Source: Patescibacteria group bacterium (GTDB lineage Bacteria; Patescibacteriota; Patescibacteriia; Patescibacteriales; UBA12465). Taken from it: a stretch of 64,000 nucleotides of DNA. The stretch is taken from the NCBI GenBank assembly GCA_023229115.1, contig JALNZW010000007.1, positions 1,423 through 65,422 on the forward strand, in the 5' to 3' direction. Below are positions 1,017 through 28,493 of the stretch, piece by piece. The number at the start of each line of letters is the position of its first letter. Position 1 is the stretch's first letter. Made by a program: the position numbers and the translations under genes. The notes under the pieces were generated by a model. The model was not told where the DNA came from, made no database searches, and saw only the letters and a list, made by a program, of their open reading frames with translations.

Positions 1017-1994
1017 TTATTTATCAAAATTTTTTCTAGAATGTATTTTTTTGTGAATATCTCCTAATTGTTTACTAGTAACATGAGTATAAACCTGGGT
1101 TGTAGCGATGTTTTTATGTCCTAAAAATTCTTGAACAAGTCTAAGGTCGACACCTTGTGACATTAAATCAGTGGCAAAACTATGTCTTAACGTGTGAGGC
1201 GTAGCCATGACCGGTAAGCCGGTTATTTTTATATATTTCTTAACTATTGTTTCAATACTTTTAGTTGTCAACCTTCTTGATTCTCCAGTTTTCTCAATTC
1301 CTGGCTTATAATTTATAAATAGGGCAGGGTCAATATCATTTCTTTTATCTAAATACTTTTTAATAGCGCTTAAAGCTCTTTCAGAAAAATAAACAGTTCT
1401 AACTTTTTGACCCTTGCCAACAACACTTATTTCTAAAAATTCTAAATTATTTTTTATTTTTATCTGATCTCTATTCAAAGCTACCAACTCTGAAACACGC
1501 AAGCCAGTAGAGAACAGTGTTTCTAGAATAGATCTATCTCTCAACCCTTTAATGTCATTATCATCCGGCGATGATAATAATTTTTTTAATTGATCTAGAT
1601 TTAAAAATTTTATTTCTCGCTCTGAACGATCCTTGGCTAATTTTATTTTGCTAGGAGGCAGAGAATTAATATTTTTTTCAACAAAAAACTCTAAAAGAGA
1701 CCTTAAGGCTATTAAATAATAATTTTGAGTACTTTTCTTAAGAGGCCTATTACTTACTTTATTTATATGCCTAGATAAAAACAAACGATACTTCCAAACA
1801 TGATCTTCATTTAAGTCTTGAGGTTTTAGGTCCTGTAAATTAGAATTTTTTAAATAATTAAAAAACTTATTTAAAAATCTGGAATAATTTTCTTGAGTCT
1901 TAAGAGAAAGACCTTTTTCAATTTCACTATAATCAAGAAAATCTTTTAAATATTTTATTATTGGCTTATTTTCCATAGGGAACTTAAAAAACAC
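1017..1994 (-). CDS. Tyrosine site-specific recombinase, XerC/XerD family
   Basis: C-terminal catalytic motifs HTLRHSFATDLMSQGVDLRLVQEFLGHKNIATTQVYTHV (R..H-x-x-R...H...Y). An N-terminal SAM-like core-binding region is present. 325 aa. Confidence 0.85.
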   Translation of the reverse strand: MFFKFPMENKPIIKYLKDFLDYSEIEKGLSLKTQENYSRFLNKFFNYLKNSNLQDLKPQDLNEDHVWKYRLFLSRHINKVSNRPLKKSTQNYYLIALRSLLEFFVEKNINSLPPSKIKLAKDRSEREIKFLNLDQLKKLLSSPDDNDIKGLRDRSILETLFSTGLRVSELVALNRDQIKIKNNLEFLEISVVGKGQKVRTVYFSERALSAIKKYLDKRNDIDPALFINYKPGIEKTGESRRLTTKSIETIVKKYIKITGLPVMATPHTLRHSFATDLMSQGVDLRLVQEFLGHKNIATTQVYTHVTSKQLGDIHKKIHSRKNFDK

Positions 1995-6415: not shown

Positions 6416-8473
6416 TTAAAAACTAGTAGTTCCAACTAATATTTCAAAATTCTTGTCACCATCTAAATCATCCGACATTATCCTTAACCCAGACCTAAAA
6501 TCATTTTCATAAGCCATAAAAGAATTTAAATTTTTACCATCTTTGTTAAAAATTTTAACTTCAGGAGATCTTCCGGCTCCAGGAGCGGTTAGTATTTCTT
6601 TTTTACCATCTCCATCAATATCCCCAACCGCCAAAGAAACACCACCTCTAAAATTTTTATCATAAGCAAAAAAACCTCCAATTAAAGGCTTGCCATCTTT
6701 GTTAAAAATTCTAATATGTGGGCCACCACCTTGACCAGCGGCTGTTATTATTTCTTGAACCTTATCACCATCTAAATCCATAACAGCCACTCTAACACCA
6801 CCTCTAAAATTTTTATCATAAGCAAAAAAACCTCCAATTAAAGGCTTGCCATCTTTATTGAAAACTCGAACATGTGGGCCACCACCTTGACCAGCCCCAG
6901 TGATTATTTCTTTAGTCTTGTCGCCATCTAAATCAGCCACAGCAAAAGAGATATCTCCAGTAAATTTTCCATCATAAGGTTTAAATTCCCTAACTTTCTG
7001 TCCATTTTTATAAATAGAAATAAGACCATTACTATTAACTAAAGTTTCATCTCGCCCATCATTATCAATATCACTAATAAGTATCTGGGAATTGGCCGGC
7101 TGACTATCTACATAAGCAAAAAAACCAGAACGATTCTGTTGTCCCTTGCTATCAAAAACTCTAATAAAATCACCATTATTAAAACTATTATTTTTAATAG
7201 TAGCTACTGAAGAAATTCTTTTTAAAAGAATAACAGCATCGTTTGGCTTTATTTTAATAAAATTAATAATAGAGCCATTATTAATGGTTCTATCTTGAAT
7301 TCCATTTATTTTTTGAAATTCTTCTTGCTTAAAAACGTAAAGTTGCTCTTTATCACTAGAATTTAAAATGACAACTCCATTTTCAAAATCACGCCTCCAA
7401 AGACTTTTTTTATAAATCGTATTTCCTTTATTAAGTAAATCATAAGCACTAGACTGAGCTTTTCCTAAACTAACATCATATTCATCATACCACCAAACCT
7501 GTCCATGACTAGAAACATCGTAATCAAAGCTAAAATAACCATGACTTTCCATCATAACACTAGCCAAACCAAACCTCATTTTTTGATAAGATTGGCGACT
7601 GCTATAAGAATTTATTATTGTAATTTTAGGAGAATTATTTTTTTCACTAATATTAGAATATGTTTTTAATATTCCATCCCAATTACCGTTACTCTCCCAA
7701 GAAGATGGAAAACCTTCCAGCATTACACCATTTAAAAGCCCCTGATAACCATCATAAACCTTTCCATTACCAAGAATTAAATATTTCGAACCAATTAACT
7801 CCCTTGTTTTTTTAAGCATTTTTTTGACACCGTTAGACCAAGCATTATTAACTTCACTAATAGTATCACCACGTCCATCATTGTTAGCGTCAAAATCACC
7901 TCGAACCCAAGCTACATCACCCCAAACATTATCATAAAAAACACCATCCCATAATCCTGTTGAAATTATTTCTCTATTAACAAACTCCGGCAAATAATCA
8001 TTCCACCTTTGACCACGAGAATTAGCTCCAGCACCATCAGTAATATTTAAAAGATAAGTTCCCTCCCAAAAAGTTGTTCTACTTTTATCTTTATTTTTTA
8101 GCCACCAAGAATCAATAATATTATCAGCTAATTTTTTTCGAAGGGTTGCGTTGTGACTCCACTGACTAGAATGAATATTAGCATTAGCTTCTTGCGAAGT
8201 TATATAAGCTAATATAATTATATCTGGATTTATTTCTCTTATTTTTTTTAAATTGTTTTTACTATTAATCTGAACTTCCATATCCAATACTAAAAGATCC
8301 CATTTGGCTAATTCATTGACTTCGTGATCGGCAATAGTCCACTTCAAAAAGTAATTAGCTAATTTGGGATAAACATTTTTTTCATACACAGCCAAGGCCT
8401 CTTTTGTTCCAATAAAAAAACAAAAGAAAGCTAAAACTAAAAAAATATTTATTTTATTAAAAAATATAGACAT
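6416..8473 (-). CDS. Secreted protein: N-terminal putative glycosyl-hydrolase-like (GHL15-type) domain + C-terminal FG-GAP/VCBS-type repeats
   Basis: Signal-like N-terminus. YPKLANYFLKW...ELAKWDLLVLDME resembles GHL15 proteins. The C-terminus carries repeated DLDGDK..EI.T.AG.GGGPH.R.FNKDGK units typical of FG-GAP repeats. Confidence 0.6.
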   Translation of the reverse strand: MSIFFNKINIFLVLAFFCFFIGTKEALAVYEKNVYPKLANYFLKWTIADHEVNELAKWDLLVLDMEVQINSKNNLKKIREINPDIIILAYITSQEANANIHSSQWSHNATLRKKLADNIIDSWWLKNKDKSRTTFWEGTYLLNITDGAGANSRGQRWNDYLPEFVNREIISTGLWDGVFYDNVWGDVAWVRGDFDANNDGRGDTISEVNNAWSNGVKKMLKKTRELIGSKYLILGNGKVYDGYQGLLNGVMLEGFPSSWESNGNWDGILKTYSNISEKNNSPKITIINSYSSRQSYQKMRFGLASVMMESHGYFSFDYDVSSHGQVWWYDEYDVSLGKAQSSAYDLLNKGNTIYKKSLWRRDFENGVVILNSSDKEQLYVFKQEEFQKINGIQDRTINNGSIINFIKIKPNDAVILLKRISSVATIKNNSFNNGDFIRVFDSKGQQNRSGFFAYVDSQPANSQILISDIDNDGRDETLVNSNGLISIYKNGQKVREFKPYDGKFTGDISFAVADLDGDKTKEIITGAGQGGGPHVRVFNKDGKPLIGGFFAYDKNFRGGVRVAVMDLDGDKVQEIITAAGQGGGPHIRIFNKDGKPLIGGFFAYDKNFRGGVSLAVGDIDGDGKKEILTAPGAGRSPEVKIFNKDGKNLNSFMAYENDFRSGLRIMSDDLDGDKNFEILVGTTSF
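6639..6950 (-). repeat. Tandem 156-bp (52-codon) in-frame duplication inside the FG-GAP region
   Basis: acaccacctctaaaatttttatcataagcaaaaaaacctccaattaaaggcttgccatcttt... occurs at about 6639 and again at about 6795. About 100 nt are near-identical. The encoded units are ...GGPH(V/I)R(V/I)FNKDGKPLIGGFFAYDKNFRGGV. Confidence 0.8.
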
Positions 8474-8595
8474 TTCTCTTCTTTTTACTTAAAAATATAT
8501 CTTTTAAATATAACATATTTTTTATATAAAGTCAATAGTTATACTTCTTAAAAAAATCAGCTTTAAAACTGATTTTACTTACGTTTGTTGACTTA

Positions 8596-9507
8596 TTAAT
8601 AGCTTATATTAATAACACTAATTTCTGGTGGATTAAATAACCTAAAAGGTAAAGCAACGTTACCTATACCAGGTGTTACAAATAAATTAATATTATTAAT
8701 ATTATAAAAACCTTTATCAAAATCATATTCACTAGGAATAATTTTCTTATAGAGAATGGGTAGTCTTATTTGACCAGCGTGAGTATGGCCAGAAATCATT
8801 AAATCAATTTTTTTATTATTTTCAACATCTTCTAACTCATAAACGGAGTCTGGATTATGGCTAAGCAAAAATATGAAAGAAATATCAGAAGAATCATCTC
8901 GAGCTAAAATAGAATAATCTGGGCTAGCCACCCAGATATCCTCTAAACCAATGAATTCTATTTTTTGTCCATTAATCTCTAATATTTTAATTTTATTATC
9001 AATCATCAAAACTCCATTTTTTTCCAAAGAAGATTTGATAATTTGAGAAACTTCACTTCCCTCTTTATCATAATCATGATTGCCCAAAACAGCTAACTTG
9101 GGTATATTTATTTCTTTTAAACTAGAGAAATAATCTTCCATTCTGTTTTTATCAGCAAAATAAACAAAATCACCTGGAATAAGAATTAAATCAGGTTTAA
9201 TTTTTTTTATTTTAGTGACAGCTCTTTCTAATAATATTTGTTTGTTATAAATACCAATGTGGATATCAGAAATAACGACAATTTTTAATTGATTCTTTAA
9301 GTTATTATCTCCAAAATTATAATTTTTAATTAACAATAAATTTGGTTCTAAGAATCTCATCCAAATAAAAAATAAACTTACAAAAAGCAAAAACAATATT
9401 TCAATAGAAAATCTTTTTTTCTTTTTAACTTGCCAAAGCAACAAAAAAATAAAAGGAAAAATAAAATACGAGCCATAATATATTAAACTTAGAAATATCT
9501 TGGTCAT
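8596..9507 (-). CDS. Membrane-associated metallophosphoesterase (calcineurin-like)
   Basis: Motifs ISDIHIG, PGDFV, GNHD and SGHTHAGQ. N-terminal TM helices are present. Confidence 0.8.
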   Translation of the reverse strand: MTKIFLSLIYYGSYFIFPFIFLLLWQVKKKKRFSIEILFLLFVSLFFIWMRFLEPNLLLIKNYNFGDNNLKNQLKIVVISDIHIGIYNKQILLERAVTKIKKIKPDLILIPGDFVYFADKNRMEDYFSSLKEINIPKLAVLGNHDYDKEGSEVSQIIKSSLEKNGVLMIDNKIKILEINGQKIEFIGLEDIWVASPDYSILARDDSSDISFIFLLSHNPDSVYELEDVENNKKIDLMISGHTHAGQIRLPILYKKIIPSEYDFDKGFYNINNINLFVTPGIGNVALPFRLFNPPEISVINISY

Positions 9508-9508
9508 T

Positions 9509-10759
9509 TTATTTTGAAGAAATTTTATCTAATTTAATCGGCAAAAACTTTTTGAGAATCTCTGGAATCAAAACACTACCATCCTCCTGTTGATTTTGCT
9601 CTAATATAGCTGGCAACAACCTAGAGGTAGCCAAGCCGGAAGCATTAAGCGTATGCAAAAATTCAATTTTTCCCTCTTTGTTCTTATAGCGCATATTACC
9701 TCGGCGAGCTTGATAATCTAAAGCATTAGAAACAGAGCTAACCTCTTTATAGATATTCATGCTAGGAATCCAAACCTCCAAATCAACCGTTTTAGCCATA
9801 GCCGAACTGCAATCACCAGCCGCCAAATCACTAATTTGGAAATGCAAACCAAGTCCTTCCAATAGTTTTGTGGCATAATTTTTCATTTCCTCAAAGGAGT
9901 TCCAAGAATCTTCTGCTTTTGTGTATTGGAACATCTCAATTTTATTAAATTGATGACCTCTAATCATACCCCTCTCCTCTTGACGATAGCTACCGGCTTC
10001 CCTTCTAAAACAAGCTGAATAAGCAAAATATTTTAAAGGCAGATCCTCTTCCTTAAGAATTTCATCGCGATGATAATTGCCCAACATCATTTCAGAGGTA
10101 GCGTTTAGACACAAACCATCTTCTACCCAAAAAAGATCGTCTCTAAACTTAGGCATATGTCCAGAGGCATAAGCCGATGCTTCATTTAATAAAAATGGAG
10201 GCAAAATAAAATTATAATTATTTTTTGTATGAAAATCTATAAAATAATTAAGTAATGCCCATTCCAATAATGCACCTTCTTTTTTATATATCCAAAAACC
10301 AGAGCCAGACATTTTAGCTGCCCTTTTATAATCAATAATATCCAAATTTTCAGCCAACTCAACATGATCTTTAGCTTTAAAAGAAAACTGAGGTTTTTCT
10401 TTAAAAGTGTAAGAAACTTTATTATTTTCTTTACCACCAGAGACAACTTCGTCTGCAACTATATTAGGTAAGCCCAACATTCTTTCTCTCAAATCATCTT
10501 CAACCTTTTTCAATTCTTCTTCTAAATTCTTAATATTAACATTATTTTCTTTAATATTTTTGATAGTTTCTTCGTCTGGTTTAGTTTTGGATAATTTATT
10601 TTTTTCAGCTTTTAAATTTTCCAACTTCCCAATCAACTCTTTTCGACTATCATCTAATTTTATTATTTTATCCAAACCCAAATCAACATCTCCCAATCTT
10701 TTTTTTAAAGAAATTTCTATGTCTTTAGTTTCCTCTCTTATTTTTTTTATATCTAGCAT
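9509..10759 (-). CDS. serS: Seryl-tRNA synthetase
   Basis: N-terminal coiled-coil arm plus class II core motifs (FRREAGSYRQEERGMIRGHQFNKIEMF; TLNASGLATSRLLPAILE). Confidence 0.95.
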   Translation of the reverse strand: MLDIKKIREETKDIEISLKKRLGDVDLGLDKIIKLDDSRKELIGKLENLKAEKNKLSKTKPDEETIKNIKENNVNIKNLEEELKKVEDDLRERMLGLPNIVADEVVSGGKENNKVSYTFKEKPQFSFKAKDHVELAENLDIIDYKRAAKMSGSGFWIYKKEGALLEWALLNYFIDFHTKNNYNFILPPFLLNEASAYASGHMPKFRDDLFWVEDGLCLNATSEMMLGNYHRDEILKEEDLPLKYFAYSACFRREAGSYRQEERGMIRGHQFNKIEMFQYTKAEDSWNSFEEMKNYATKLLEGLGLHFQISDLAAGDCSSAMAKTVDLEVWIPSMNIYKEVSSVSNALDYQARRGNMRYKNKEGKIEFLHTLNASGLATSRLLPAILEQNQQEDGSVLIPEILKKFLPIKLDKISSK

Positions 10760-10792
10760 ATTTTTATATTTCTCGTATTAACGATAAAAAAA

Positions 10793-12397
10793 TTAATTTA
10801 TTACTTGTCCACCAAAAGTCTTAAGAATATTTTCTATAGCCTCATTATTGGAGGACTTCATATTGCTCGGGTTATCATTTTTTGAATCTCCATCAATAAT
10901 AGCTTCAATTGTTAAATCAGTCTTATAAACATCTTTCAAAATTTTATTAATAATATTTTTTATTTCTGGATTATCCAACCTATCTTTATGAAGTTTATAC
11001 TTGAAAGCTAAACAAATTTTGTTAGAATTGATTGAACTTATTTGACAGGATTGCATAACAAAAGACAAGGAATGATTATGCGGTTTTAATTTCATTAAAA
11101 ATTCTGGCCATAAATTTAGTATTTCATCTAGACTCAAAATGCCTTTATTTAAACTAGACAAATTTGAAGATTCAATTTTTGAATGAGAACCTTCTTTGTC
11201 TTTTTCTTCAGAAACACTCTCATCTAAATTACTTTTGCTTATCTTTTTTTGAATTGGTTTAATATTTTCTAATTCAGGGTTTTTTTTAATATTATCAACT
11301 TTATTATTACCACAAAAATCAATAACACTTAATTCAACTGGCATTTGAGGTATAAAATGACTTCCAATATCCCTTAAATTATCTAAAAATTTTTCACTTA
11401 AAAATATCAATTCATTAATTTCAAACTGAGAGCTTAATTCACTAATTTTTATTTCCATTTTTTCACTCAAATCTAAGCCTAAAGTAGTTGATAAAGAATT
11501 GTTCATTTTAGATAATATCATTTTCCTAAGAAGCTCTATTAAGTCGGTTAAAAATATTTTTAAATTAACGCCATTTAAAAATAAATTATTTACCAATTCA
11601 ATAGCTGAAACAGCATCTTTCTTGCTTAAAAATTTTAGGAAATTAATATTTTCTTCTAGGTTGTTGTAAGGGATAACTAAGCTAGCGCTAGTCATATTTA
11701 TTTCATTGTCAGAAATAGATATTATTTGACTTAAAAGACTTTCAGCATCTCTTAAATGGCCATCTGACTTACTAGCTATTAATTCTAGCACTTCCCGATC
11801 CGCTTTTATCTTTTCTTTTTTAACAATATTTTCCAATTTCAAAATCATATCAGAAGTACTTATCTTTTTGAAATCAAATCTTTCACAACGAGAAATTATT
11901 GTTAGTGGTACTTTATAAGCTTCGGTAGTACAAAGTATAAAAATAACATTAGCTGGTGGCTCTTCTAGTGTTTTAAGGAGAGCATTAAAAGCCGACAAAG
12001 AGAGCATGTGCACCTCATCAATTATAAAAACCTTATACTTGTTATTAGTAGAAATAATTCTACTTAAAGAAATAATATTTTCCCTAACATTGTCAACTCC
12101 CGTATTGCTAGCGGCATCAATTTCAACAACATCTAAATTACTAAAACCATTAATACTAAGACAAGATTCACAATTATTACAAGGCTCATATTCATTTTCC
12201 TTTCTGTTTGTGCAATTAACTGCCTTAGCCAAAACTCTAGCTAAAGTTGTTTTGCCAACAGCCCTTGGTCCACAAAACAAATAAGCATGCGCAATTTTAT
12301 TGTGTAAAATTTCGTTTTGCAAGGTAATCTTTATATTGTTCTGTCCCAAAATTTCTGAAAATTTTTGAGGTCTATATTTCTGATATAAAACAGCCAT
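10793..12397 (-). CDS. dnaX: DNA polymerase III subunit gamma/tau
   Basis: YRPQKFSEILGQ...HAYLFCGPRAVGKTTLARVLAKAVNC, a zinc module CNNCESC, and the DEVHMLS box. Confidence 0.95.
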   Translation of the reverse strand: MAVLYQKYRPQKFSEILGQNNIKITLQNEILHNKIAHAYLFCGPRAVGKTTLARVLAKAVNCTNRKENEYEPCNNCESCLSINGFSNLDVVEIDAASNTGVDNVRENIISLSRIISTNNKYKVFIIDEVHMLSLSAFNALLKTLEEPPANVIFILCTTEAYKVPLTIISRCERFDFKKISTSDMILKLENIVKKEKIKADREVLELIASKSDGHLRDAESLLSQIISISDNEINMTSASLVIPYNNLEENINFLKFLSKKDAVSAIELVNNLFLNGVNLKIFLTDLIELLRKMILSKMNNSLSTTLGLDLSEKMEIKISELSSQFEINELIFLSEKFLDNLRDIGSHFIPQMPVELSVIDFCGNNKVDNIKKNPELENIKPIQKKISKSNLDESVSEEKDKEGSHSKIESSNLSSLNKGILSLDEILNLWPEFLMKLKPHNHSLSFVMQSCQISSINSNKICLAFKYKLHKDRLDNPEIKNIINKILKDVYKTDLTIEAIIDGDSKNDNPSNMKSSNNEAIENILKTFGGQVIN

Positions 12398-12406
12398 AAT
12401 TTTTAT

Positions 12407-13669
12407 TTATCTAATTGACCCTGAATAAGTTATCGCTTGCATGATGTTCCAATCTTCAGTTGTTTCTGGTAATTTATCGAAAATATCTTTAAAAATAGCG
12501 ATACCTTTAACCTCACTATTTAAGTTTCTATTTTCAGCTCTTTGTCTTAAACCATAAGCCATTATTTTTATAGCCGACATGTCCTTAACGTTATTTTCAT
12601 CAGCTTCTCTTTTATAGATAGTTCTAAACATTTCCCTAGCCCTCAATTCGGCCTCCTCATTATAGTTTTCTGGCCAACGACCGTTAGCTATTTTAATAGC
12701 ATCAGCTAATTCTTGCCCAGTTTCTGGTAATTTACCAAAAGCATTTTGAAAAGAATGAATAACAGCAGCTCTCTCTCCTTCTCCTAATTTTTTAGTATTT
12801 TCATCAACTCCATATGTTACAAAACTATTAATAGCGTTTCTAGCCTCTTCGCTAATTTTACTCATTTCCGTTATTAAGGATTTTAAATGAAGAATTTGAG
12901 CTTGTTGTTCTTTGATGATATTTCTTAATTCTCTTATTTCATTTAAGATTTGAGTCAAATTATTGTTTAACAATAAATTAGCTGATTCATTTATTTCTTC
13001 AATCATTTGATCGTTGGAAGTAGATTTACATTCACCCTCATAAGCCACAATTTGACCATATTGTTTTTCGGCTATACAACGATTAGAATAAGTTTTACCA
13101 TTCTTAGCACAAACAGGAGCATACTCTTTAGTGCAAGCGATCATCTCTTCTTTACACTCCCCCATATAAGCAAAACTTTGCTTAGCAGCGTTTAAAAAGC
13201 ATTTATTACTATAAGTTTTACCATCCTTACCACAAACTGGTGCATATTCTAAAGTACAGGCTACAGCATCTGTATTTTCACCACCTAAAGTCACTTTTAT
13301 TTGATTACTATAAACACCACATTTACCGCCCAAATATTCACAAACACGAACATAATAATTTCCAGCTCCACTAAAAGCCTCTAATGTATCAGAACTCTTG
13401 TTCGCATCTGTAAAATAATGATATTTATCTCCGCTTCTTAAAGGATAAGTTGGCCCTTCATTTTTTGACCAAACAACTTTAAATCCTTGATCAGAATAAC
13501 CATTAGTAGTCCAATATATTTTTGATCCGTCAGCCTTTAGAGCAATTGACTCTACAGAAGAATTGTCATGTTCTTCATTGACGTAAATAGCCTTAGCTTG
13601 ATCAATAAAAAACAAGCCAAAAGCAAGGAATAATGAAAGACCTGCTAACGTAAGCTTTTTAATATTCAT
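12407..13669 (-). CDS. Secreted protein with two tandem Kazal-type domains plus a C-terminal helical domain
   Basis: Signal peptide. [25 protein letters not shown]...GEC and [25 protein letters not shown]...GEC fit the Kazal cysteine/Tyr pattern (nt about 13028-13258). Confidence 0.75.
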
Positions 13670-13849
13670 AGTTTTTTTATACCTTGAATTAATGCATAAT
13701 TTAAGGTATTTAAATTAATATTTTACTATAAGTTTATTATAACAATTTTAAATTTATCAGTAAAGATTCTACTTACCTTTCTTGAAATATTTTTTTTATA
13801 GAGCTATAATCAAAAACAGATAAATAATAAAAATAATTTATAAAGTCTT

Positions 13850-14992
13850 ATGAAAAGAATAATTGTCTTTTTTTTGTTGTTTTTAACTATTTTTAGCCTA
13901 AAAACTGAAATAGTAAAAGCGAATTCCGATTTAGAAAATTCATTTACAAAAAATAATGAAAATCAAGTGGAGATATTGTTTTTTGGTAGCCCCACCTGCC
14001 CTCATTGTTCGGTCGAAAAAGAATTTCTTGAAAAAATCAAAGAAAAATACCCAGACACAATTATAAAAGAGTATGATTTTTCTAAAAATTTAGAATTAGT
14101 AGAAAAATTGTATGATGAACATGAGGTACTTAAAGGACAAAGAGGTTTAGTGCCAGCTACATTTATTGGCGAAAATTTCTTTCTTGGGTTTAATGAAAGT
14201 ATTTCTAAAGAAATAGAAAATCAAATTCAAGGAGCTAAAGTTGACAACTCCTCTCCTGCAATAAAAATTCCTTTGGTTGGAGAAGTTGATATTTTTAAAT
14301 ATTCGATGCCAGTTCTAGCAATAATACTAGGTGTTGTAGACGGATTTAATGTTTGCTCACTAGGCGCTTTAGTCATAATCCTAGGCTTAGTAATGGTTTT
14401 AAGGTCAAGAAAAAGAATATTAGTGCTGGGTGGCGTTTTCGTTTTAGTAACTGGCCTAACCTATGGATTACTTATATTTTTATGGCACCAATTTTTTGCT
14501 TTTATATCACCCTATATTAAAAGCATGGAGATACTAATAGCTGCTCTCTCAATTATTGGCGGTCTTTATCTCCTGAGAGAATTCATAAAGTCAATTAAAG
14601 AAGGGCCTACCTGCTCTTCTGGCGGAATTATAGCAAGACTAACACCTAAAGTAGAAAAAATATTTGCCAATAAGAAAAAGTTATCTATTCTTTTCGGGGT
14701 TGTTGTTTTGTTTGCACTAGCCATAACCATAGTTGAGTTTCCCTGCTCTGCTTTTTTACCCATGCTTTTTGCCAGCCTATTAGTAGAAAGTCAGTTTAGT
14801 TTAGGGACTAGCATTTCTTATATGGGCTTATTTCTTCTATTTTACATGCTTGATGAAATTATTATTTTCTTAATAGCCTTCTTTAGTCTTAAAATAAAAA
14901 TTGTATCTCCTAAGTTTATAAATGCTTTTAATTTATTGGCCGCTATCATCTTTTTATTCCTAGGTGGCTTTTATTTGGCAAGAATATTTTAA
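13850..14992 (+). CDS. Thioredoxin-fold (CPHC) domain fused to a DsbD/CcdA-like multi-pass membrane domain
   Basis: Signal/TM, then FFGSPTCPHCSVEKEFLEK (Trx/Grx-like CxxC). This is followed by at least 6 hydrophobic helices with conserved Cys (FNVCSLGAL, EFPCSAFLP). Confidence 0.6.
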   Translation: MKRIIVFFLLFLTIFSLKTEIVKANSDLENSFTKNNENQVEILFFGSPTCPHCSVEKEFLEKIKEKYPDTIIKEYDFSKNLELVEKLYDEHEVLKGQRGLVPATFIGENFFLGFNESISKEIENQIQGAKVDNSSPAIKIPLVGEVDIFKYSMPVLAIILGVVDGFNVCSLGALVIILGLVMVLRSRKRILVLGGVFVLVTGLTYGLLIFLWHQFFAFISPYIKSMEILIAALSIIGGLYLLREFIKSIKEGPTCSSGGIIARLTPKVEKIFANKKKLSILFGVVVLFALAITIVEFPCSAFLPMLFASLLVESQFSLGTSISYMGLFLLFYMLDEIIIFLIAFFSLKIKIVSPKFINAFNLLAAIIFLFLGGFYLARIF

Positions 14993-15077
14993 ACAACGAT
15001 ACAGAAAATATTCATTGATTTTTTTATAAAAATAATACATAATAACAAGTTAAAAGAAGAACCTTAAAAATTAAATA

Positions 15078-15632
15078 GTGATGAAAAAACTAAAAGAAAA
15101 AATAATTCTATTTTTAGAATGTTTTTTTACCTGGAAAATTAAAAAAGACAAGAAAAACGAGCCCGAGGAAGCTTATGTTTATTTTTGTCTATCATTTGGT
15201 TACGCCAAAGATCATTCAGATTTAAGCAATCAAGCCTTAGCTCTTGTTTTGAAAAAATACTACTTACAAAAAAGAGCGATAATAATTGCTCAAAAAGAAA
15301 TAGCAGATTATTTGCCAGATGTTATAATAAATTTCACTATTAATAAGCATCAAAAAGAATCTAAGTATTTAGACACTTTTGAAGTTTGCAGACAATGCTT
15401 TAATTATTGTCAAGAAATAAATCTCAAAAAAATTCTAGTTTTTGCTCACCCTGATCATCTGTGGAGAATAAAAAAAGTTATGGAGAAGCTAGGGGCAAAA
15501 ATTTCTGTAGCTGACACCAGTGCTTGTCCATATAATAAAAAATCAAAACAAATATGGACTAAAAATAGAGCTTTCTTTATGATTAGAGAAGTGTTTGTAC
15601 GCTTATATTATTTTTTCTCTGGTAAAATCTAA
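15078..15632 (+). CDS. DUF218/YdcF-like protein (weak)
   Basis: C-terminal KILVFAHPDHLWRIKKVMEKLG resembles the DUF218 (V)T..yHm.Ra pattern. Only one motif was matched. Confidence 0.4.
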   Translation: MMKKLKEKIILFLECFFTWKIKKDKKNEPEEAYVYFCLSFGYAKDHSDLSNQALALVLKKYYLQKRAIIIAQKEIADYLPDVIINFTINKHQKESKYLDTFEVCRQCFNYCQEINLKKILVFAHPDHLWRIKKVMEKLGAKISVADTSACPYNKKSKQIWTKNRAFFMIREVFVRLYYFFSGKI

Positions 15633-15745: not shown

Positions 15746-16480
15746 TTATTTCTTTTTTATAGTTTTTTTAGTAGTTTTTACCTTTGGAGTAGCTGTCTTT
15801 TTAAGCTCTTTTTTAGCTGGTTTAGAAATAACTTTTTTAGTTTCTTTGCCAATATTCTTTTTCTTGTCCACCTTTTTAACTTCTACTTTTTTGGCCTCTT
15901 CTTTAGCATTATCTTTCTTAACTTCTTCTTTTTTTTCTGAAGATAATTTAATAACATTATTTTTAGGAGTTAAGATGTCTATAAGTTTATCTAATTTAGC
16001 ATTTAAAAGCTCAAACTGTTTATCTGAAGATCCATTTTTGCCAGAACCTTTTCTTGATCCATCTCCTTTACCAAAACATTCATCACAATAAACTGGTTTA
16101 TCAGGTGATGGTTTAAAAGGAACTTCACAATCCTTTCCGCACTCATCACAAACAACTTTAAACATTTGTCTATCTCTATCACCAAAAGATGGTTTAGAAA
16201 AATCTCTATCACGAGAACCTCTTGATCTAGAAAAATCTCTATCATTAGACCCTCTAGGATTTGAATTTTCTCTACCAGCAAAACAATTACTGCAATAAAC
16301 AGGTTTGTCGCCTGTTGGTTTAAAAGGAACTTCACAGCTAGCACCACATTCAGCACAAGTAGCTCTATGCATTTCTGATCTACCACCTCCAAAACTACCA
16401 CCTCTGCCAGAACTTCTGCCACCTCCAAAACCGCCGCCTCTTCTATCTCTAGAACCCCTGTCTCTGTTAAAATCTCTCAT
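15746..16480 (-). CDS. CxxC-x17-CxxC zinc-ribbon protein (two modules) with RG-rich N-terminus and K-rich C-terminal tail; probable nucleic-acid-binding protein
   Basis: CAECGASCEVPFKPTGDKPVYCSNCF and CDECGKDCEVPFKPSPDKPVYCDECF each have exactly 17 residues between the CxxC pairs. RGG/RDR repeats lie N-terminal and a lysine-rich tail lies C-terminal. Confidence 0.7.
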   Translation of the reverse strand: MRDFNRDRGSRDRRGGGFGGGRSSGRGGSFGGGRSEMHRATCAECGASCEVPFKPTGDKPVYCSNCFAGRENSNPRGSNDRDFSRSRGSRDRDFSKPSFGDRDRQMFKVVCDECGKDCEVPFKPSPDKPVYCDECFGKGDGSRKGSGKNGSSDKQFELLNAKLDKLIDILTPKNNVIKLSSEKKEEVKKDNAKEEAKKVEVKKVDKKKNIGKETKKVISKPAKKELKKTATPKVKTTKKTIKKK

Positions 16481-18822: not shown

Positions 18823-18849
18823 AAAAAAACACCCAAAGAAGGTGTTTTT
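18823..18849. terminator. Intrinsic terminator hairpin (bidirectional look) after DUF333 gene
   Basis: A-run, ACACC-CAAAGAA-GGTGT, T-run. The sequence is closely similar to the hairpin inside the GC-rich element at 19691-19719. Confidence 0.55.
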
Positions 18850-18871
18850 AAAAGAATTAAAATGTTTTTAA

Positions 18872-19369
18872 TTATTGTATTTCCACGTTTCCGGCATTTG
18901 GAGTTAGATCGCTTGGATCAGGACATTCACCATTAAAATTTGCTTGTGCCGTACAAAGCGTTCCATCTATTCGTTTGCACATTGGAGTGTCCGTACCTAC
19001 CCCTTCAACCTCCCCTCCAGTAATGACACAAAAAATTTCAGCATTATTTTCGTAACCAGTTATTTTTAATCCACCAACTGGGCAATCTCCGCGCAAAAGC
19101 GCCCATTCTTCACACTGTCTATTATCTTCAAAAAAACAAACTCCATATTCTCCCCCATCACCACGCTTCTGAACAACTAAATCTCCACCAGAATTTAGAC
19201 AATTAACTGAAGCTGGATTAGCCATTTGAACTGAATTTTCTGGAATCAAAGACTCTTTAACATTGGACAATCCTGATGGTTCTTGTATAAATTTTTGATA
19301 AAAACAAAGACCACCGATACCAACAACTAAAATAATAATCGTAAACAATGTTAATTGTTTAAATTTCAT
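18872..19369 (-). CDS. DUF333-family secreted protein (two DUF333-like Cys modules)
   Basis: TM/signal, then ANPASVNCLNSGGDLV...GEYGVCFFEDNRQCEEWALLRGDC (DUF333 pattern). A second, more divergent module follows. Confidence 0.7.
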   Translation of the reverse strand: MKFKQLTLFTIIILVVGIGGLCFYQKFIQEPSGLSNVKESLIPENSVQMANPASVNCLNSGGDLVVQKRGDGGEYGVCFFEDNRQCEEWALLRGDCPVGGLKITGYENNAEIFCVITGGEVEGVGTDTPMCKRIDGTLCTAQANFNGECPDPSDLTPNAGNVEIQ

Positions 19370-19517
19370 ATTTTTATAATTAAATAATTTTATTATTAAA
19401 TAAAAATAATATCACTCTCATAATACCATATTTAATTAAAAAATAAAAAGTTGTTTAAAATTTATATAAGAAGGATTCAGATCTATAAATTTCGCTTGTC
19501 TTGTTTTGTTTTACGTG

Positions 19518-19536
19518 GCTCGGGGACTAGGATTCG
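19518..19536 (-). repeat. Exact 19-nt copy of the tRNA-Gln 3' end (T-loop C to discriminator +1); att-like direct repeat, distal copy
   Basis: gctcggggactaggattcg is identical to 28422-28440 and 20878-20896, in the same orientation as the tRNA gene. Confidence 0.8.
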
Positions 19537-19690
19537 GTCACGGTCACTAAGCCTCGCTCCCTCGCTTCGCTCATCGCTCGCTAAGCGCCCCGACCCGACC
19601 TCGCCTGTGCTCATTTCATTCGCACATGGCTCAGGCTTTCTCATCCTAGGCGCGAAGTGCGCAGGCACTTCGCTTCCCCTTCGCTCATTC

Positions 19691-19719
19691 AAAAAAACAC
19701 CCCAAAGGGTGTTTTTTTT
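19691..19719. terminator. Terminator-like 12-bp hairpin inside copy 1
   Basis: AAAAAAACACCC-CAAA-GGGTGTTTTTTT, flanked on both sides by CATTC. Confidence 0.5.
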
Positions 19720-19784
19720 CATTCGCTCGCCTGGAGAGACAGTTTTCGGACGTGGGTGGCTAATAATAAAGAATAATTTAGACA

Positions 19785-20765
19785 TCAATTCTTCATTTGT
19801 CTAACCTCAAAATCTACTAAATTATCTAAATTAAAATTTTCTCTCTCCGCCTCACATTCTCCTCTCTCTTTGTCTGGATAATTACTACAATTAGGGTACC
19901 GAGCTACAAATTGCACCAAGTAAACATTATCTTCTATTACTGTCGTATAAGCATATTGCGTATAGACAGATCCTACTGCTCCTTCGCTTGAAGCGCCTAT
20001 GCAATATTTCTGACCGTTTACCTGTCTCTTGCTTATTCGTAGCGGCAAACTTGATTCTAGGGGAGTTTCATCACACTCTATTTCACTATTTTCTACCCAA
20101 GACTCTAATTTAGGATATTCTTCGACATTAAATACGTTTGAGCCATAATTCTGAAATGAAATATAACTAGCCTTAAAGCTATCTGGTAGATTTGATTCTA
20201 TATTTCCTTCTTCAGTATATAAATGCTTAACTCCTTCTACTTTGATTGTACCTAAAGTTGTATAAATCTCACTTTCTTCGTTAATCAACTCTCCGCTAAT
20301 TTCTATTTTTTGTCCCATTCTTATTTTATTAACTACATTATTTTTATCGTCACTTGGCGCTTGCAAGCGATAATAATCACCATCATTATTCTTAACACCA
20401 AAGACGCATAAATCATTATGAGGCTCATCTTGATTTTTTACAGGTAAACAAACAAAATCTCCGGAGACAATGAATAAATCTTTATTTTCTAAATTCACTG
20501 CTTCATTGATGGATAAATTTCCACAATCACAAAGTATTTTTTTACCACACAAAGTTGACACGCTGTCACAAGGAACTTGAACATTATTATATTCTTTGCA
20601 TCCAAATAACCCTTCACAATTTTTTAAGCTAAATTCACAATATCCTTTTTCGGGATATGCCTTAAAATCGTTTTCACACTTATTTGGAATTAAAAAAAAT
20701 AAAGCAATAAAAATAAATAGTAAAGCAGCTAAAGAGTAGATTAAAATTTTGAATTCCTTTTTCAT
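19785..20765 (-). CDS. Secreted/membrane-anchored cysteine-rich protein, function unknown
   Basis: 326-aa ORF with N-terminal hydrophobic anchor and many Cys in the first about 90 and last about 80 residues. No family recognised. Confidence 0.55.
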   Translation of the reverse strand: MKKEFKILIYSLAALLFIFIALFFLIPNKCENDFKAYPEKGYCEFSLKNCEGLFGCKEYNNVQVPCDSVSTLCGKKILCDCGNLSINEAVNLENKDLFIVSGDFVCLPVKNQDEPHNDLCVFGVKNNDGDYYRLQAPSDDKNNVVNKIRMGQKIEISGELINEESEIYTTLGTIKVEGVKHLYTEEGNIESNLPDSFKASYISFQNYGSNVFNVEEYPKLESWVENSEIECDETPLESSLPLRISKRQVNGQKYCIGASSEGAVGSVYTQYAYTTVIEDNVYLVQFVARYPNCSNYPDKERGECEAERENFNLDNLVDFEVRQMKN

Positions 20766-20877
20766 ACTATTTTAAATTTAAATATTAACTATTTATATTA
20801 TAACATACCCCCTCCTTCTATCAAATAATATAAATCATAAATAAAAATACGCTATTATTAGCTTATTTTTATTATTC

Positions 20878-20896
20878 GCTCGGGGACTAGGATTCG
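20878..20896 (-). repeat. Exact 19-nt copy of the tRNA-Gln 3' end; att-like direct repeat, middle copy
   Basis: gctcggggactaggattcg is identical to 28422-28440 and 19518-19536. Confidence 0.8.
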
Positions 20897-21175
20897 GTCA
20901 CGGTCATCGCATAAAATGGCCTTGCCATCACGCGACCTCGCTAACAAAAACAACGTTGCTTTATAGGCGCCCTCCGCGTGCCGAAGGTTATACGCGGCTC
21001 CGGCTTTCTCGTCCTAAATGCCACGTATAGCTCACTTCGTTCGCACGTGGCTTCGCTCGTCGCTCGCTAAGCGCCCCGACCCGGCCTCGCCTGTGCTCAT
21101 TTCATTCGCACATGGCTCCGGCTTTCTCATCCTAGGCGCGAAGTGCGCAGGCACTTCGCTTCCCCTCACTCATTC

Positions 21176-21204
21176 AAAAAATCCAGCTTACACTGGATTT
21201 TTTT
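21176..21204. terminator. Terminator-like 11-bp hairpin inside copy 2
   Basis: AAAAAATCCAG-CTTACA-CTGGATTTTTT occupies the same position as the copy-1 hairpin. The stem sequence is different and the same CATTC flanks are present. Confidence 0.5.
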
Positions 21205-21610
21205 CATTCGCTCCGCACTCAGGTCTAGAAACTAATAAATAGGAGTTTTACAAGGGTTTTTGAATATATTTTATATACTAAAATAACGTAGTTCGGTCGG
21301 GGTCTGAAATTAAATGTTACAAATATTACACTATAAAAAGAAGTTTTTATCTTGAGAAATGTAAATAAGGTTATTATAATATTTTATTATGAAAAACACT
21401 TTTACTTTTCATATTTATATAAACTCCACCATTTAAAACACAAGCATGAATAATTATACAATTAAAATTTTCAAATATTTCTTTATTGTTATGTTTTCGC
21501 AAAGACTTATAATGAGTTGTTATTTCATTATCCATGCCCAATCCATGCCCAAAAAAAATATTATAATAGTAGTTGGCTAAATCCTGTTTTCATTTGACTC
21601 CATAATACTA

Positions 21611-27969: not shown

Positions 27970-27997
27970 TGCTCGGAGACTGGGACAAGATTGGAAC
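27970..27997 (-). repeat. Degenerate remnant of the tRNA-Gln 3' end (possible decayed att copy)
   Basis: Compare tgctcggagactgggacaagattggaac with the tRNA region tgctcggggactagg-------attcgaac. They share the tgctcgg.gact.gga and att.gaac ends, with an internal insertion. Confidence 0.35.
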
Positions 27998-28064
27998 TTT
28001 TTTGTAAGAAAAAAGGCCTCTTCAACAAAGAAAAGGCCTTATGACTGATTACTGTAAATCGAGT

Positions 28065-28343: not shown

Positions 28344-28422
28344 CTTTTTTTCCTCCTTATTGATTAGTATCTTGTTAATGAATACAAAAAATATAGCATA
28401 AAGCTATATTTTTGTCAATGTG

Positions 28423-28493
28423 CTCGGGGACTAGGATTCGAACCCAGATAAACAGGACCAGAACCTGTTGTCCTACCATTAGACGATCCCCGA
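28423..28493 (-). tRNA. tRNA-Gln (anticodon CUG), CCA not encoded
   Basis: Manual cloverleaf: acceptor TCGGGGA/TCCCCGA (U1:A72, G73 as expected for Gln), D arm GTC-TAATGGTA-GGAC, anticodon arm ACAGG-TTCTGGT-CCTGT, variable TTAT, T arm CTGGG-TTCGAAT-CCTAG. 71 nt. Confidence 0.9.

Follow-up and report, generated by a model that had tools for sequence, protein, structure and literature searches.

What are two long runs of G and C doing between the genes of an otherwise AT-rich chromosome? The question is raised by a stretch of 64,000 nucleotides (nt) from a Patescibacteria group bacterium (assembly GCA_023229115.1, contig JALNZW010000007.1, positions 1,423 to 65,422; hereafter the window), in which a sequence-only reading, made without database searches, had picked out two intergenic segments as paralogous and hairpin-rich. 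The answer that emerges from further analysis is that these segments, E1 (19761 down to 19518) and E2 (21228 down to 20878, both on the minus strand), are copies of an undescribed folded element of about 200 bases, which sits directly behind transfer RNA (tRNA) genes in tiny-genome bacteria of the Patescibacteria type. The feature is real, the family to which it belongs is new, and the architecture is not one that has been described for tRNA-linked repeats. The element probably moves from one tRNA gene to another, and it encodes no protein.

Composition, ends and orientation

The contrast in composition is borne out by counting, since the segments have 55-64% GC in a genome of ca 28% GC, and 100-nt windows have GC fractions of 0.60-0.61 at 19500-19650 and of 0.54-0.64 at 20900-21150, in a stretch whose background is 0.19-0.33 per kb. 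The same is true of the repeats by which the two copies had been related to each other. A repeat finder recovers the identical block of 29 nt (19518-19546 and 20878-20906) and, together with pairwise alignment, a common core of 117 nt at 97% identity (19564-19680 and 21050-21166); the alignment also contains the extra sequence of the second copy, between block and core, and the internal duplicate of 21 nt (20996-21016 and 21114-21134) is present in the sequence. The terminator-like hairpin that had been noted in both copies does indeed lie at the same relative place in each, flanked by an A-run and a T-run, but the stem sequences differ, and a simple terminator scan, under the criteria of that scan, flagged neither. 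DNA identical to this region is found in two other public assemblies, such that the segments are no assembly oddity of a single sample; JGI 3300015214 and ENA ERZ27247376 are samples in which the strain is present. As a separate matter, nearly the same hairpin as that of E1 at 19691-19720 (AAAAAAACACCC...GGTGTTTTT) occurs at 18828-18855, downstream of a DUF333 gene.

The nature of the 29-nt block becomes evident from a third member of its repeat family, which lies at 28422-28450 and is the 3' end of the only tRNA gene in the window, tRNA-Gln. Over their first 18-19 nt the three members agree exactly, and they do so in one orientation; the 18-nt tail so defined occurs three times in the window where 0.01 occurrences are expected. 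Since the tail shares the orientation of tRNA-Gln, and since the genes of the region around the elements all lie on the minus strand, the elements are to be read on that strand. In other words, the plus-strand orientation adopted earlier has to be reversed, as both the family orientation and the apparent fold belong to the minus, or tRNA-sense, strand, and what had been called a 5' block is in fact the 3' end of the element, its first 19 nt being the 3' end of tRNA-Gln.

The sequence-only reading could not assign the segments to a known family by eye, and a check against Rfam likewise gave no relevant match. At gathering thresholds, Rfam 15 matches only tRNA-Gln in the whole window, and with E up to 10 the interval 19300-21400 gives only sub-threshold scores, of 11-23 bits where the cut-offs are 45-80, most of them from the terminator hairpin. 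ARAGORN finds only tRNA-Gln in the window; nor, with E as high as 10, do the models for tRNA and transfer-messenger RNA (tmRNA) find anything on E1 or E2, in which tRNA sequence is confined to the last 18-19 nt. The group I and group II intron models (RF00028 and RF00029) are without a match, the core amounting to only ~125 nt, and the tRNA introns described from Patescibacteria in PMC13011429, being group I introns of the anticodon loop, are not this element. Literal core sequences had no occurrence in the literature searched, in which keywords led only to analogies.

Relatives and the common fold

Relatives were reached through the spurious minus-strand open reading frame (ORF) that overlies E1, a protein search with which led to two other contigs. 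Each of these contains an intact tRNA-Gln followed directly by the element, which in both ends in a repeat of the T-loop-to-3' end of tRNA-Gln. A conserved core word located 10 loci in species-representative genomes and 36 in metagenome contigs, and a second ORF-based search, with a profile of 20 peptides, added 6 proteins and three more contexts. The check for relatives that the sequence-only reading had proposed is thereby made, with about 50 found in metagenomes and genome bins (designated below by L numbers) and with strong covariation among them. The core of ~125 nt stands directly after intact tRNA-Gln (CUG, UUG) and tRNA-Ala (UGC, GGC), and likewise after tRNA-Ser (CGA, GGA, UGA, GCU), tRNA-Pro (GGG) and tRNA-Val (UAC). 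The element is always oriented as the tRNA is, and its tail is of the type of that tRNA's own T-loop-to-3' end.

The element is rare: an exact 21-mer occurs in 10 of 185,579 species genomes, once in each, which means that it is no high-copy repeat. Several of the carrier records are labelled Parcubacteria or Patescibacteria and some otherwise. Among the latter, the label 'uncultured Gammaproteobacteria' (L007, L011, L013 and L014) is probably a binning or labelling error, judging from the genes upstream of tRNA-Ala that L007 and L014 share with the Patescibacteria-labelled L008; the first hairpin of L014 is also the hairpin that follows the tail in L008.

Folding of the aligned family with RNAalifold gives three helices that meet at a junction, which are a closing helix P0, made up of the tail and a segment complementary to it (anti-T), a short helix Px enclosing a hairpin hp1, and a long interrupted helix P2 capped by a second hairpin, hp2. 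A covariance model built from seven elements outside the window and run on 45 sources returned 53 matches, all the strong ones on the tRNA-sense strand; E1, to which the model owes nothing as it was built only from other loci, is matched at 19518-19654(-) with 72.8 bits and E = 1e-14. In an alignment that was fitted to this model, and in which structure is favoured to that extent, 93.0% of cells are standard pairs, as against 31-39% when partners are slid by 1-3 columns and 83.2% in shuffles, while 27 of the 44 pairs are changed on both sides (15.8 ± 1.8 in shuffles) and 204 cells are compensated (47 ± 6). None of the 500 shuffles reached any of the observed covariation measures. In the anti-T/tail helix itself both sides have changed in 8 of 11 pairs.

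Individual loci make the same point. A C-G pair of P2 has turned into A-T in L052 and L054, a whole 6-bp block of P2 has been swapped in the second copy of L039 (CGAGTT/AACTCG), and hp2 occurs as GCTTGC/GCAAGC, GTTTGC/GCAAAC, GTTCAC/GTGAAC, GTCACGT/ACGTGAC and GTCGCG/CGCGAC. These compensatory changes in the helices, along with the co-variation of anti-T and tail, show that the fold is real and kept under selection. The earlier suggestion of a structured RNA family, or else of an RNA-bearing end of a mobile element, is upheld in part, inasmuch as the segments are structured, non-coding, hairpin-rich, strongly covarying and tied to mobile DNA. The idea that they might be the end of some larger, enzyme-encoding element is not, most copies being solo and directly behind an intact tRNA.

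With regard to the strand that folds, the core helices contain G-T in 22 cells at 11 positions, one of these G-T pairs being invariant, against 3 A-C cells at 3 positions, and the minimum free energy of E1 is -73.8 kcal/mol for the minus strand, where the family structure is reproduced, against -61.0 for the plus strand. On these counts and energies the folded strand is taken, with moderate confidence, to be the tRNA-sense one. Many of the loops are GNA triloops closed by C-G, a type of loop that is especially stable in DNA. A hammerhead-like junction was also considered and rejected, the GAAA strand being present and the CUGANGA box absent.

Read along the tRNA strand, a unit begins with a long hairpin, in many cases perfectly paired, whose loop is usually CTGC and which often stands between an A-run and a T-run. 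A linker leads from this hairpin to anti-T, after which come the conserved core (GAAAGCCGGAG, the variable hp1, CGAGGCCGGGTCGGGGCGCTTAGCGAGCG, the variable hp2 and AGCGAGGCTTAGCGACCGTGACC) and lastly the tail, in which the tRNA is copied from about C56/G57 as far as the base that follows the discriminator. The CTGC loop, which recurs in most family members inspected, is conserved in the family, and a TAGCGA motif is repeated. The first 7-12 nt of the tail have their reverse complement in anti-T, which varies with the tRNA: it reads CCTAAGGGATTC at tRNA-Ala(UGC), ATAAGGGACTT at tRNA-Ala(GGC), CAGGGATTTG at tRNA-Ser(CGA), CCGGAATT at tRNA-Pro, ACAAGGATTC at tRNA-Val and CCTAGGA in the Gln type of the window. 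The mean complementarity of anti-T and tail is 7.5 nt, compared with 5.96 ± 0.19 for mismatched partners. L052 and L054, which are orthologous loci, differ at corresponding positions in the T-loop of tRNA-Val, in the tail and in anti-T. Two-hairpin subfamilies, the Gln type of the window included, have in addition a short complement of the acceptor 3' strand before the CTGC hairpin, which gives them a tRNA-like outline. This anti-acceptor is longer in L013 and in L012/L021 and is not family-wide; as a feature of the whole family, an acceptor-like stem was rejected on a value of 5.53 against 5.54 in the control.

The tail is not always a copy of the tRNA that it now adjoins. In L004 both tail and anti-T (CCTAG/CTAGG) depart from the resident tRNA (CCCTG), and in L015, L037 and L049 the tail is GAATCCCGCCCTCGGAGC, with an anti-T changed to match, beside a tRNA-Gln that ends in CCCTGTCCCCGAGC; a variant tail (GAAACCTT...) recurs at different flanks in L009, L012 and L021. 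Comparison of these loci shows the tail to belong to the element and to travel with it. Necessarily, since the left copy is purely that of the tRNA and the right copy purely that of the element, any exchange must be at the extreme 3' end of the tRNA.

Stacks, cassettes and probable movement

The relationships among cores, targets and flanks bear directly on mobility. Cores at tRNA-Ala(UGC), tRNA-Ser(GGA), tRNA-Ala(GGC) and tRNA-Ser(GCU) are 92-96% identical, whereas two elements at an orthologous tRNA-Ala(UGC) locus are only 80% identical, from which it follows that core lineages do not follow the target. The tRNA-Ala(GGC) gene is empty in L052 and L054 and has the element in L031, L033, L035 and L045, and the 16 nt after the element tail in L004 resemble the sequence directly behind the element-free tRNA-Gln of the window. 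L042 and L022 have the element and its downstream flank in common, with an island between tRNA and element in L022, and in L003 the tRNA and element are followed by a restriction-modification-like island of 3.75 kb and a second, identical element. The tRNA-3' direct repeat with the tRNA left intact is that expected of the attachment repeats of a tRNA-targeting integrative element. Taken together, the position at tRNA integration hot spots and the occurrence of the same element with different flanks support a link to mobile DNA. Second units are truncated in L017, L035, L033 and L045, with breaks 0, 4, 37 and 42 nt into the core respectively; in L033 the break extends into the gene that lies downstream, suggesting a deletion.

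Within the window (Table 1), E2 is, from its sequence, a composite of two units, and the 21-nt internal duplicate is the start of the second of these, consisting of anti-T plus GAAAGCCGGAGCC. Unit a is matched by the covariance model at 21013-21140(-) with 25 bits and is 97% identical to E1 over 21050-21166, while unit b has no model match as a full unit and ends in a proper tail. The stack behind tRNA-Gln runs, on the minus strand, through a 92-amino-acid (aa) gene closed by a pseudo-T site to ~7 kb of accessory genes (DUF5677, a 5'-nucleotidase and small membrane proteins) and then to E2, after which come a gene for a 326-aa Cys-rich protein, closed by a degenerate remnant of a tRNA tail, then E1, and then DUF333 and MFS genes, an MFS gene being found downstream of tRNA-Gln in related contigs too. 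We interpret the remnant as the right-hand end of the gene cassette upstream, and the same ~45 nt precede the element in L048. The 326-aa protein is without a Pfam family; its homologues adjoin the element in L005. Beyond this region the genes of the window, among them those for UvrABC, aminoacyl-tRNA synthetases and glycosyltransferases, are what one finds on an ordinary small-genome chromosome.

Table 1. Positions of the parts of E1, E2 and the resident tRNA-Gln in the window
Feature	Position	Strand	Basis or remark
E1 tail, T-loop-to-3' end copy of tRNA-Gln (GAATCCTAGTCCCCGAGC); 3' strand of P0	19518..19535	-	Exact match to 28422-28439 and 20878-20895
E1 conserved core (GAAAGCC...GTGACC)	19536..19640	-	Covariance model, minimum-energy fold, covariation
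E1 core helices Px, hairpin hp1 and long helix P2 with apical hp2	hp1 19603-19630; P2 with hp2 19536-19594	-	
E1 anti-T CCTAGGA, complementary to the T-loop/T-stem part of the tail; 5' strand of P0	19644..19650	-	Covariation, fold
E1 hairpin with CTGC loop (GCGAAGTGC-CTGC-GCACTTCGC)	19652..19673	-	Sequence, fold
E1 anti-acceptor GGGGA, pairing with TCCCC of the tail; two-hairpin subfamilies only	19675..19679	-	Fold
E1 A-run/hairpin/T-run, terminator-like in both directions	19691..19720	-	Sequence; same position in E2 and Gln-type relatives, stem sequence differing
Degenerate tRNA-3'-end-like remnant before E1 (…CGTCCGAAAACTGTCTCTCCAGGCGAGC)	19725..19761	-	Sequence
Gene for 326-aa Cys-rich protein with N-terminal hydrophobic segment; one-gene cargo between E2 and E1	19785..20765	-	
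E2 tail, second exact T-loop-to-3' end copy of tRNA-Gln	20878..20895	-	
E2 unit b, degenerate: anti-T-like TAGGACGA, GAAAGCCGGAG, hairpin CCGCGT..ACGCGG, AT-richer rest, end ...GATGACCGTGACC	20896..21016	-	
E2 unit a: anti-T (21130-21136) and core intact through the 5' strand of P2, 3' half replaced	21018..21136	-	
E2 left part: CTGC hairpin (21138-21159), A-run/hairpin/T-run (21176-21204), degenerate tRNA-3'-like remnant (21210-21228)	21138..21228	-	
Pseudo-T site (GTTCCAATCTTGTCCCAGTCTCCGAGC) after the 92-aa gene; further cassette boundary behind tRNA-Gln	27975..28003	-	
tRNA-Gln(CUG), resident target gene, no element directly behind	28422..28493	-	

Several patterns accompany the elements without being part of them. 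The pseudo-T site consists of GTTCSAA, ~5 nt and CGTCC, followed by the acceptor 3' strand of a tRNA, and it occurs with or without the GC-rich element: besides the site in the window it is found, in oriented coordinates, in L021 (285, 1448 and 4638), L009 (653 and 2227), L029 (1273 and 2222), L012, L013, L034 and L050. With a spacing of 1-3 kb, such sites close small gene cassettes behind tRNA genes, in which no integrase was seen; an integron-like array of cassettes would look much like this, as would a family of small islands with such ends. A motif GTTCCAAAGT, or its complement, lies near tRNA-proximal cassette ends in L027 (~7330), L029 (~650) and L050 (~4890 and ~4960) and downstream of the element in L055; it may be a binding site of the recombinase that moves the cassettes. 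Cargo between tRNA and element is found in L022 (366-2279), L030 (3024-5216), L009 (963-1715) and L003 (10385-12392), and as 137-aa ORFs in L009, L029 and L039. It is defence-like or accessory in nature, with AAA_15/AAA_21 and SMC-like ATPases, a NERD nuclease, NUDIX, a DNA methylase and a DpnII-like gene. In L055 a prophage-like block (7874-15585; RusA, an S24 repressor, an N6/N4 methylase and a terminase-like gene) abuts a pseudo-T-like site, after which comes the element.

As for an enzyme, no integrase or recombinase was found among the flanking or cargo genes of the about 50 loci, nor any transposase or reverse transcriptase in or beside the elements, and no protein family is common to the loci beyond host synteny. 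Pfam searches of cargo and flanking genes gave NUDIX, NERD, AAA ATPases, a methylase, DUF5677 and the 5'-nucleotidase, and neither recombinase nor transposase. The only recombinase of any kind found in the window is an Xer-like tyrosine recombinase of 325 aa (1017-1994, minus strand), 17.5 kb away, which scores under the XerC and XerD equivalog cut-offs. Scans of viral contigs with three element patterns gave no match, as did BLAST of E1 against phage and plasmid collections; a scan with the pseudo-T pattern gave one chance match within a coding region.

Three repeat features elsewhere in the window are recorded for completeness. A tandem repeat of 156 nt at 86% identity (6608-6919) lies within a 685-aa ORF (6416-8473), and a 57-nt direct repeat at 81% identity with a spacing of 123 nt (13082-13261) lies in the gene for a 420-aa Kazal-domain protein. 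A 244-aa protein (15746-16480, minus strand; Pfam zf_Tbcl_2) has Gly/Arg-rich and Lys-rich low-complexity stretches and a duplicated Cys motif, and its DNA repeats at 16072-16129 and 16279-16336.

Explanations and known systems

What, then, are E1 and E2? The best explanation, to which we would give about even chances, is that they are copies of a protein-less, non-autonomous element of ~200 nt that is specific for tRNA 3' ends and is mobilised in trans. What has been observed is the anatomy, the fold, the tRNA match, the spread across tRNAs and flanks, and the stacks and tandem units; from these we infer movement, mobilisation in trans, the kind of enzyme and the active form, be it single-stranded DNA or a read-through RNA. 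The proposal is that a small circular or single-stranded intermediate, comprising hairpin, anti-T, core and tail, undergoes site-specific recombination with the tRNA 3' end, such that the unit comes to lie immediately beyond the final base of the tRNA gene. The responsible enzyme would have its gene elsewhere, and the target-matched P0 helix would be its recognition module, anti-T pairing with the terminal tRNA copy to give a Y-shaped, partly tRNA-like single-strand body; the long hairpin may also supply the tRNA with a terminator. Later insertions at the same tRNA, whether of copies, gene cassettes or prophages, would push older copies outward, and such stacking would give the order seen in the window, namely tRNA-Gln, ~7 kb of cargo, E2, one gene and E1. 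We lean towards single-stranded DNA as the active form, in view of an IS608-like geometry, the terminator-like hairpins that flank the unit in most loci examined, the failure to see a conserved promoter, the GNA triloops and the GC skew, from which last the folded strand would be the lagging-strand template in the window.

Several points weigh against an element of this kind. The strand test depends on few independent events, with 11 positions set against 3, and the fold itself, a three-way junction with 44 pairs in which the junction bases are conserved, resembles a functional RNA more closely than it does the known single-stranded-DNA recombination sites. A double-stranded circle of 200 bp would be strained. 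The exact 21-mer is found only once in each of its 10 species genomes, the truncated second units of L017, L033, L035 and L045 are only partly explained, and no excised form, recombinase or autonomous relative was found.

Some of these points lead directly to the strong alternative that remains, which is that the element is the gene of a structured non-coding RNA, produced as read-through of the strongly transcribed tRNA gene and freed, at its tRNA-like 3' end, by the enzymes of tRNA processing; such an RNA might serve the host, or might guide an unlinked RNA-guided recombinase or nuclease, with anti-T and tail as its target-matching parts. This is a possible, if tentative, reading. It would account for the several helices with covariation in every variable one, the conserved junction bases, the tolerance of G-U pairs on the tRNA-sense strand, the GC-richness within an AT-rich genome, the unvarying place and orientation immediately behind a tRNA, the acceptor-like and T-like stems that lend some subfamilies a tRNA-like shape, and the retention of the element, with compensatory change, at the orthologous locus of L052 and L054. 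It sits less easily with the T-run hairpin that separates element from tRNA in the loci examined, most of which have another after the tail (A-run/hairpin/T-run structures stand on both sides in most of these loci), with the want of a conserved promoter, an Rfam match or an adjacent partner protein, with a patchy distribution over different tRNAs, and with loops that are dominated by GNA triloops instead of GNRA or UNCG. That the segments are inert scars, the leftover attachment-site arms of a family of phages or islands of tRNA 3' ends from which the interior was deleted, is improbable. Direct repeats of a tRNA tail and stacked cassettes are typical of integration hot spots, a prophage-like region adjoins a copy in L055, and islands with repeated 3' ends are stacked at the tmRNA gene of Dehalococcoides, according to PMC3146451. 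Compensatory changes in all helices and the co-variation of anti-T with tail show, on the other hand, that the fold is under selection, nearly identical cores stand at different tRNAs, and neither the four viral scans nor BLAST against phages and plasmids produced a long element with the core as its arm; moreover, where a prophage or island is present it ends in a different motif, the pseudo-T site.

The Neurospora mitochondrial retroplasmids, which integrate by way of tRNA-3'-primed complementary DNA (cDNA) and homologous recombination, suggest a further origin, in which cDNA primed on a tRNA 3' end was fixed at the tRNA gene by homologous recombination. Such a retro-element would start exactly at the tRNA 3' end and end in a tail copy of ~18 nt, as is seen, and tandem units with a truncated distal copy would be natural to it. 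We nevertheless consider it very improbable, as tRNA-element junctions have no post-transcriptional CCA, save where CCA is gene-encoded, no reverse transcriptase gene lies nearby, and at least one truncated unit runs into downstream coding sequence, in keeping with plain deletion; in addition, group II introns are reported as undetected in complete Patescibacteria genomes (PMC13011429). Least probable by far, with next to no chance of being right, is that the ORFs at 19451-19804(+), 19483-19788(-) and 21018-21242(+) encode small proteins, even though the minus-strand ORF is called by gene callers in public assemblies. Searches of 5.8 billion proteins with the minus-strand ORF and with a plus-strand frame, as a 20-element profile, returned only other copies of the element (3 and 6 matches), in agreement with the earlier view of these ORFs as spurious. 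One conserved frame always stops at GCTTAG, conservation tracks base pairs and not codons, and the lengths of hp1 and hp2 differ by non-multiples of three, which excludes a conserved reading frame.

To return to an element mobilised in trans, it is conceivable, but in our estimation rather doubtful, that the module guides itself, with anti-T base-pairing to the T-arm of the tRNA gene, as RNA or single-stranded DNA, and directing an unlinked recombinase whose specificity could be reset between tRNAs. If so, the element would be a tRNA-targeting counterpart, in Patescibacteria, of bridge-RNA or IS608-type guided recombination. TnpB-type guide logic was rejected, because the adjacent intact tRNA would itself be a target. 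The tRNA 3' end is a classic landing site of phages and islands, and the DNA left there is usually seen as a plain repeat read by an integrase; here it is a gene-less unit of 200 nt with a selected fold, a copy of the target together with its complement, and nearly the same core behind at least five kinds of tRNA. Were base-pair targeting true, the unit would amount to a programmable insertion system of a new and very compact sort, and would provide a handle on the pile-up of accessory and defence genes behind tRNAs in reduced Patescibacteria genomes. Were it RNA instead, it would be a new tRNA-linked class in a phylum with few known non-coding RNAs, and in either case the covariance model is a ready tool for genome surveys.

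The element can be compared with several known systems. Among tRNA-like RNAs, which include tmRNA, bacterial Y-RNA-like RNAs and viral tRNA-like ends, it finds a parallel in those subfamilies whose two ends form an acceptor-like and a T-like stem, but it has a large insertion in the 'T loop' and neither a D nor an anticodon arm, and the acceptor-like stem is not family-wide. With the bridge and seek RNAs of IS110/IS1111 and the omega RNAs of TnpB/IscB it shares the form of a structured, GC-rich, non-coding module of ~150-200 nt with target-matching segments, and modules of this kind can stand apart from a transposase gene; free-standing small-RNA modules are reported for an IS110-family element in PMC12288879. 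Unlike these guides, it has no adjacent DEDD transposase or TnpB in the about 50 loci and no Rfam match, its internal loops are invariant, and its target-matched parts pair with each other in cis, in the closing helix. Nor does it resemble a miniature inverted-repeat transposable element, as its ends are not inverted repeats, its copies are few, and its repeat is an 18-19-nt copy of the target that may differ from the resident tRNA.

Islands at tRNA and tmRNA genes offer a further comparison. Enzyme-less derivatives of tRNA-3'-end islands include the cis-mobilisable elements (CIMEs) of Streptococcus and the tycheposon remnants of Prochlorococcus. Like such islands, the element has inserted at the 3' end with a direct repeat of the tail and an intact tRNA, forms stacks, and exists as copies without a recombinase of their own; PMC3146451 describes integrative islands with repeated 3' ends, stacked at the tmRNA gene of Dehalococcoides. 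It differs from them in its size of ~200 nt without cargo, its GC-rich, covarying three-way fold, its internal complement of the repeat, and the service of many different tRNAs by one element core.

Sites that are read as folded single strands are known from the attC of integrons, the CTX phage site and the ends of IS200/IS605 elements such as IS608 and of their non-autonomous derivatives (background in PMC5027513 and PMC6393395). These are single imperfect hairpins with 4-nt guides or extrahelical bases read by protein, unlike the 44-pair junction and the 7-12-nt complement of the present element, for which no link to IntI, to a mimic of Xer-dif or to a Y1 transposase was found. More particularly, the three-way junction distinguishes it from attC, of which no intI was found in the loci and no R-box (GTTRRRY) was seen by eye, and on the IS200/IS605 side there is neither a Y1 transposase nor TnpB in the about 50 loci, nor any match to the Rfam IS605 motifs. 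It is like all of them in its strand-specific folding, in a structure that is kept while the stems vary, and in the possible size of an 'empty' cassette. IS608 inserts 3' of its target, with which a guide inside the element pairs, and a similar pairing reads the element's own end. An insertion 3' of the target, together with an internal complement of that target, is also the arrangement of the present element, whose geometry and strand specificity are compatible with an IS200/IS605 end or a non-autonomous derivative.

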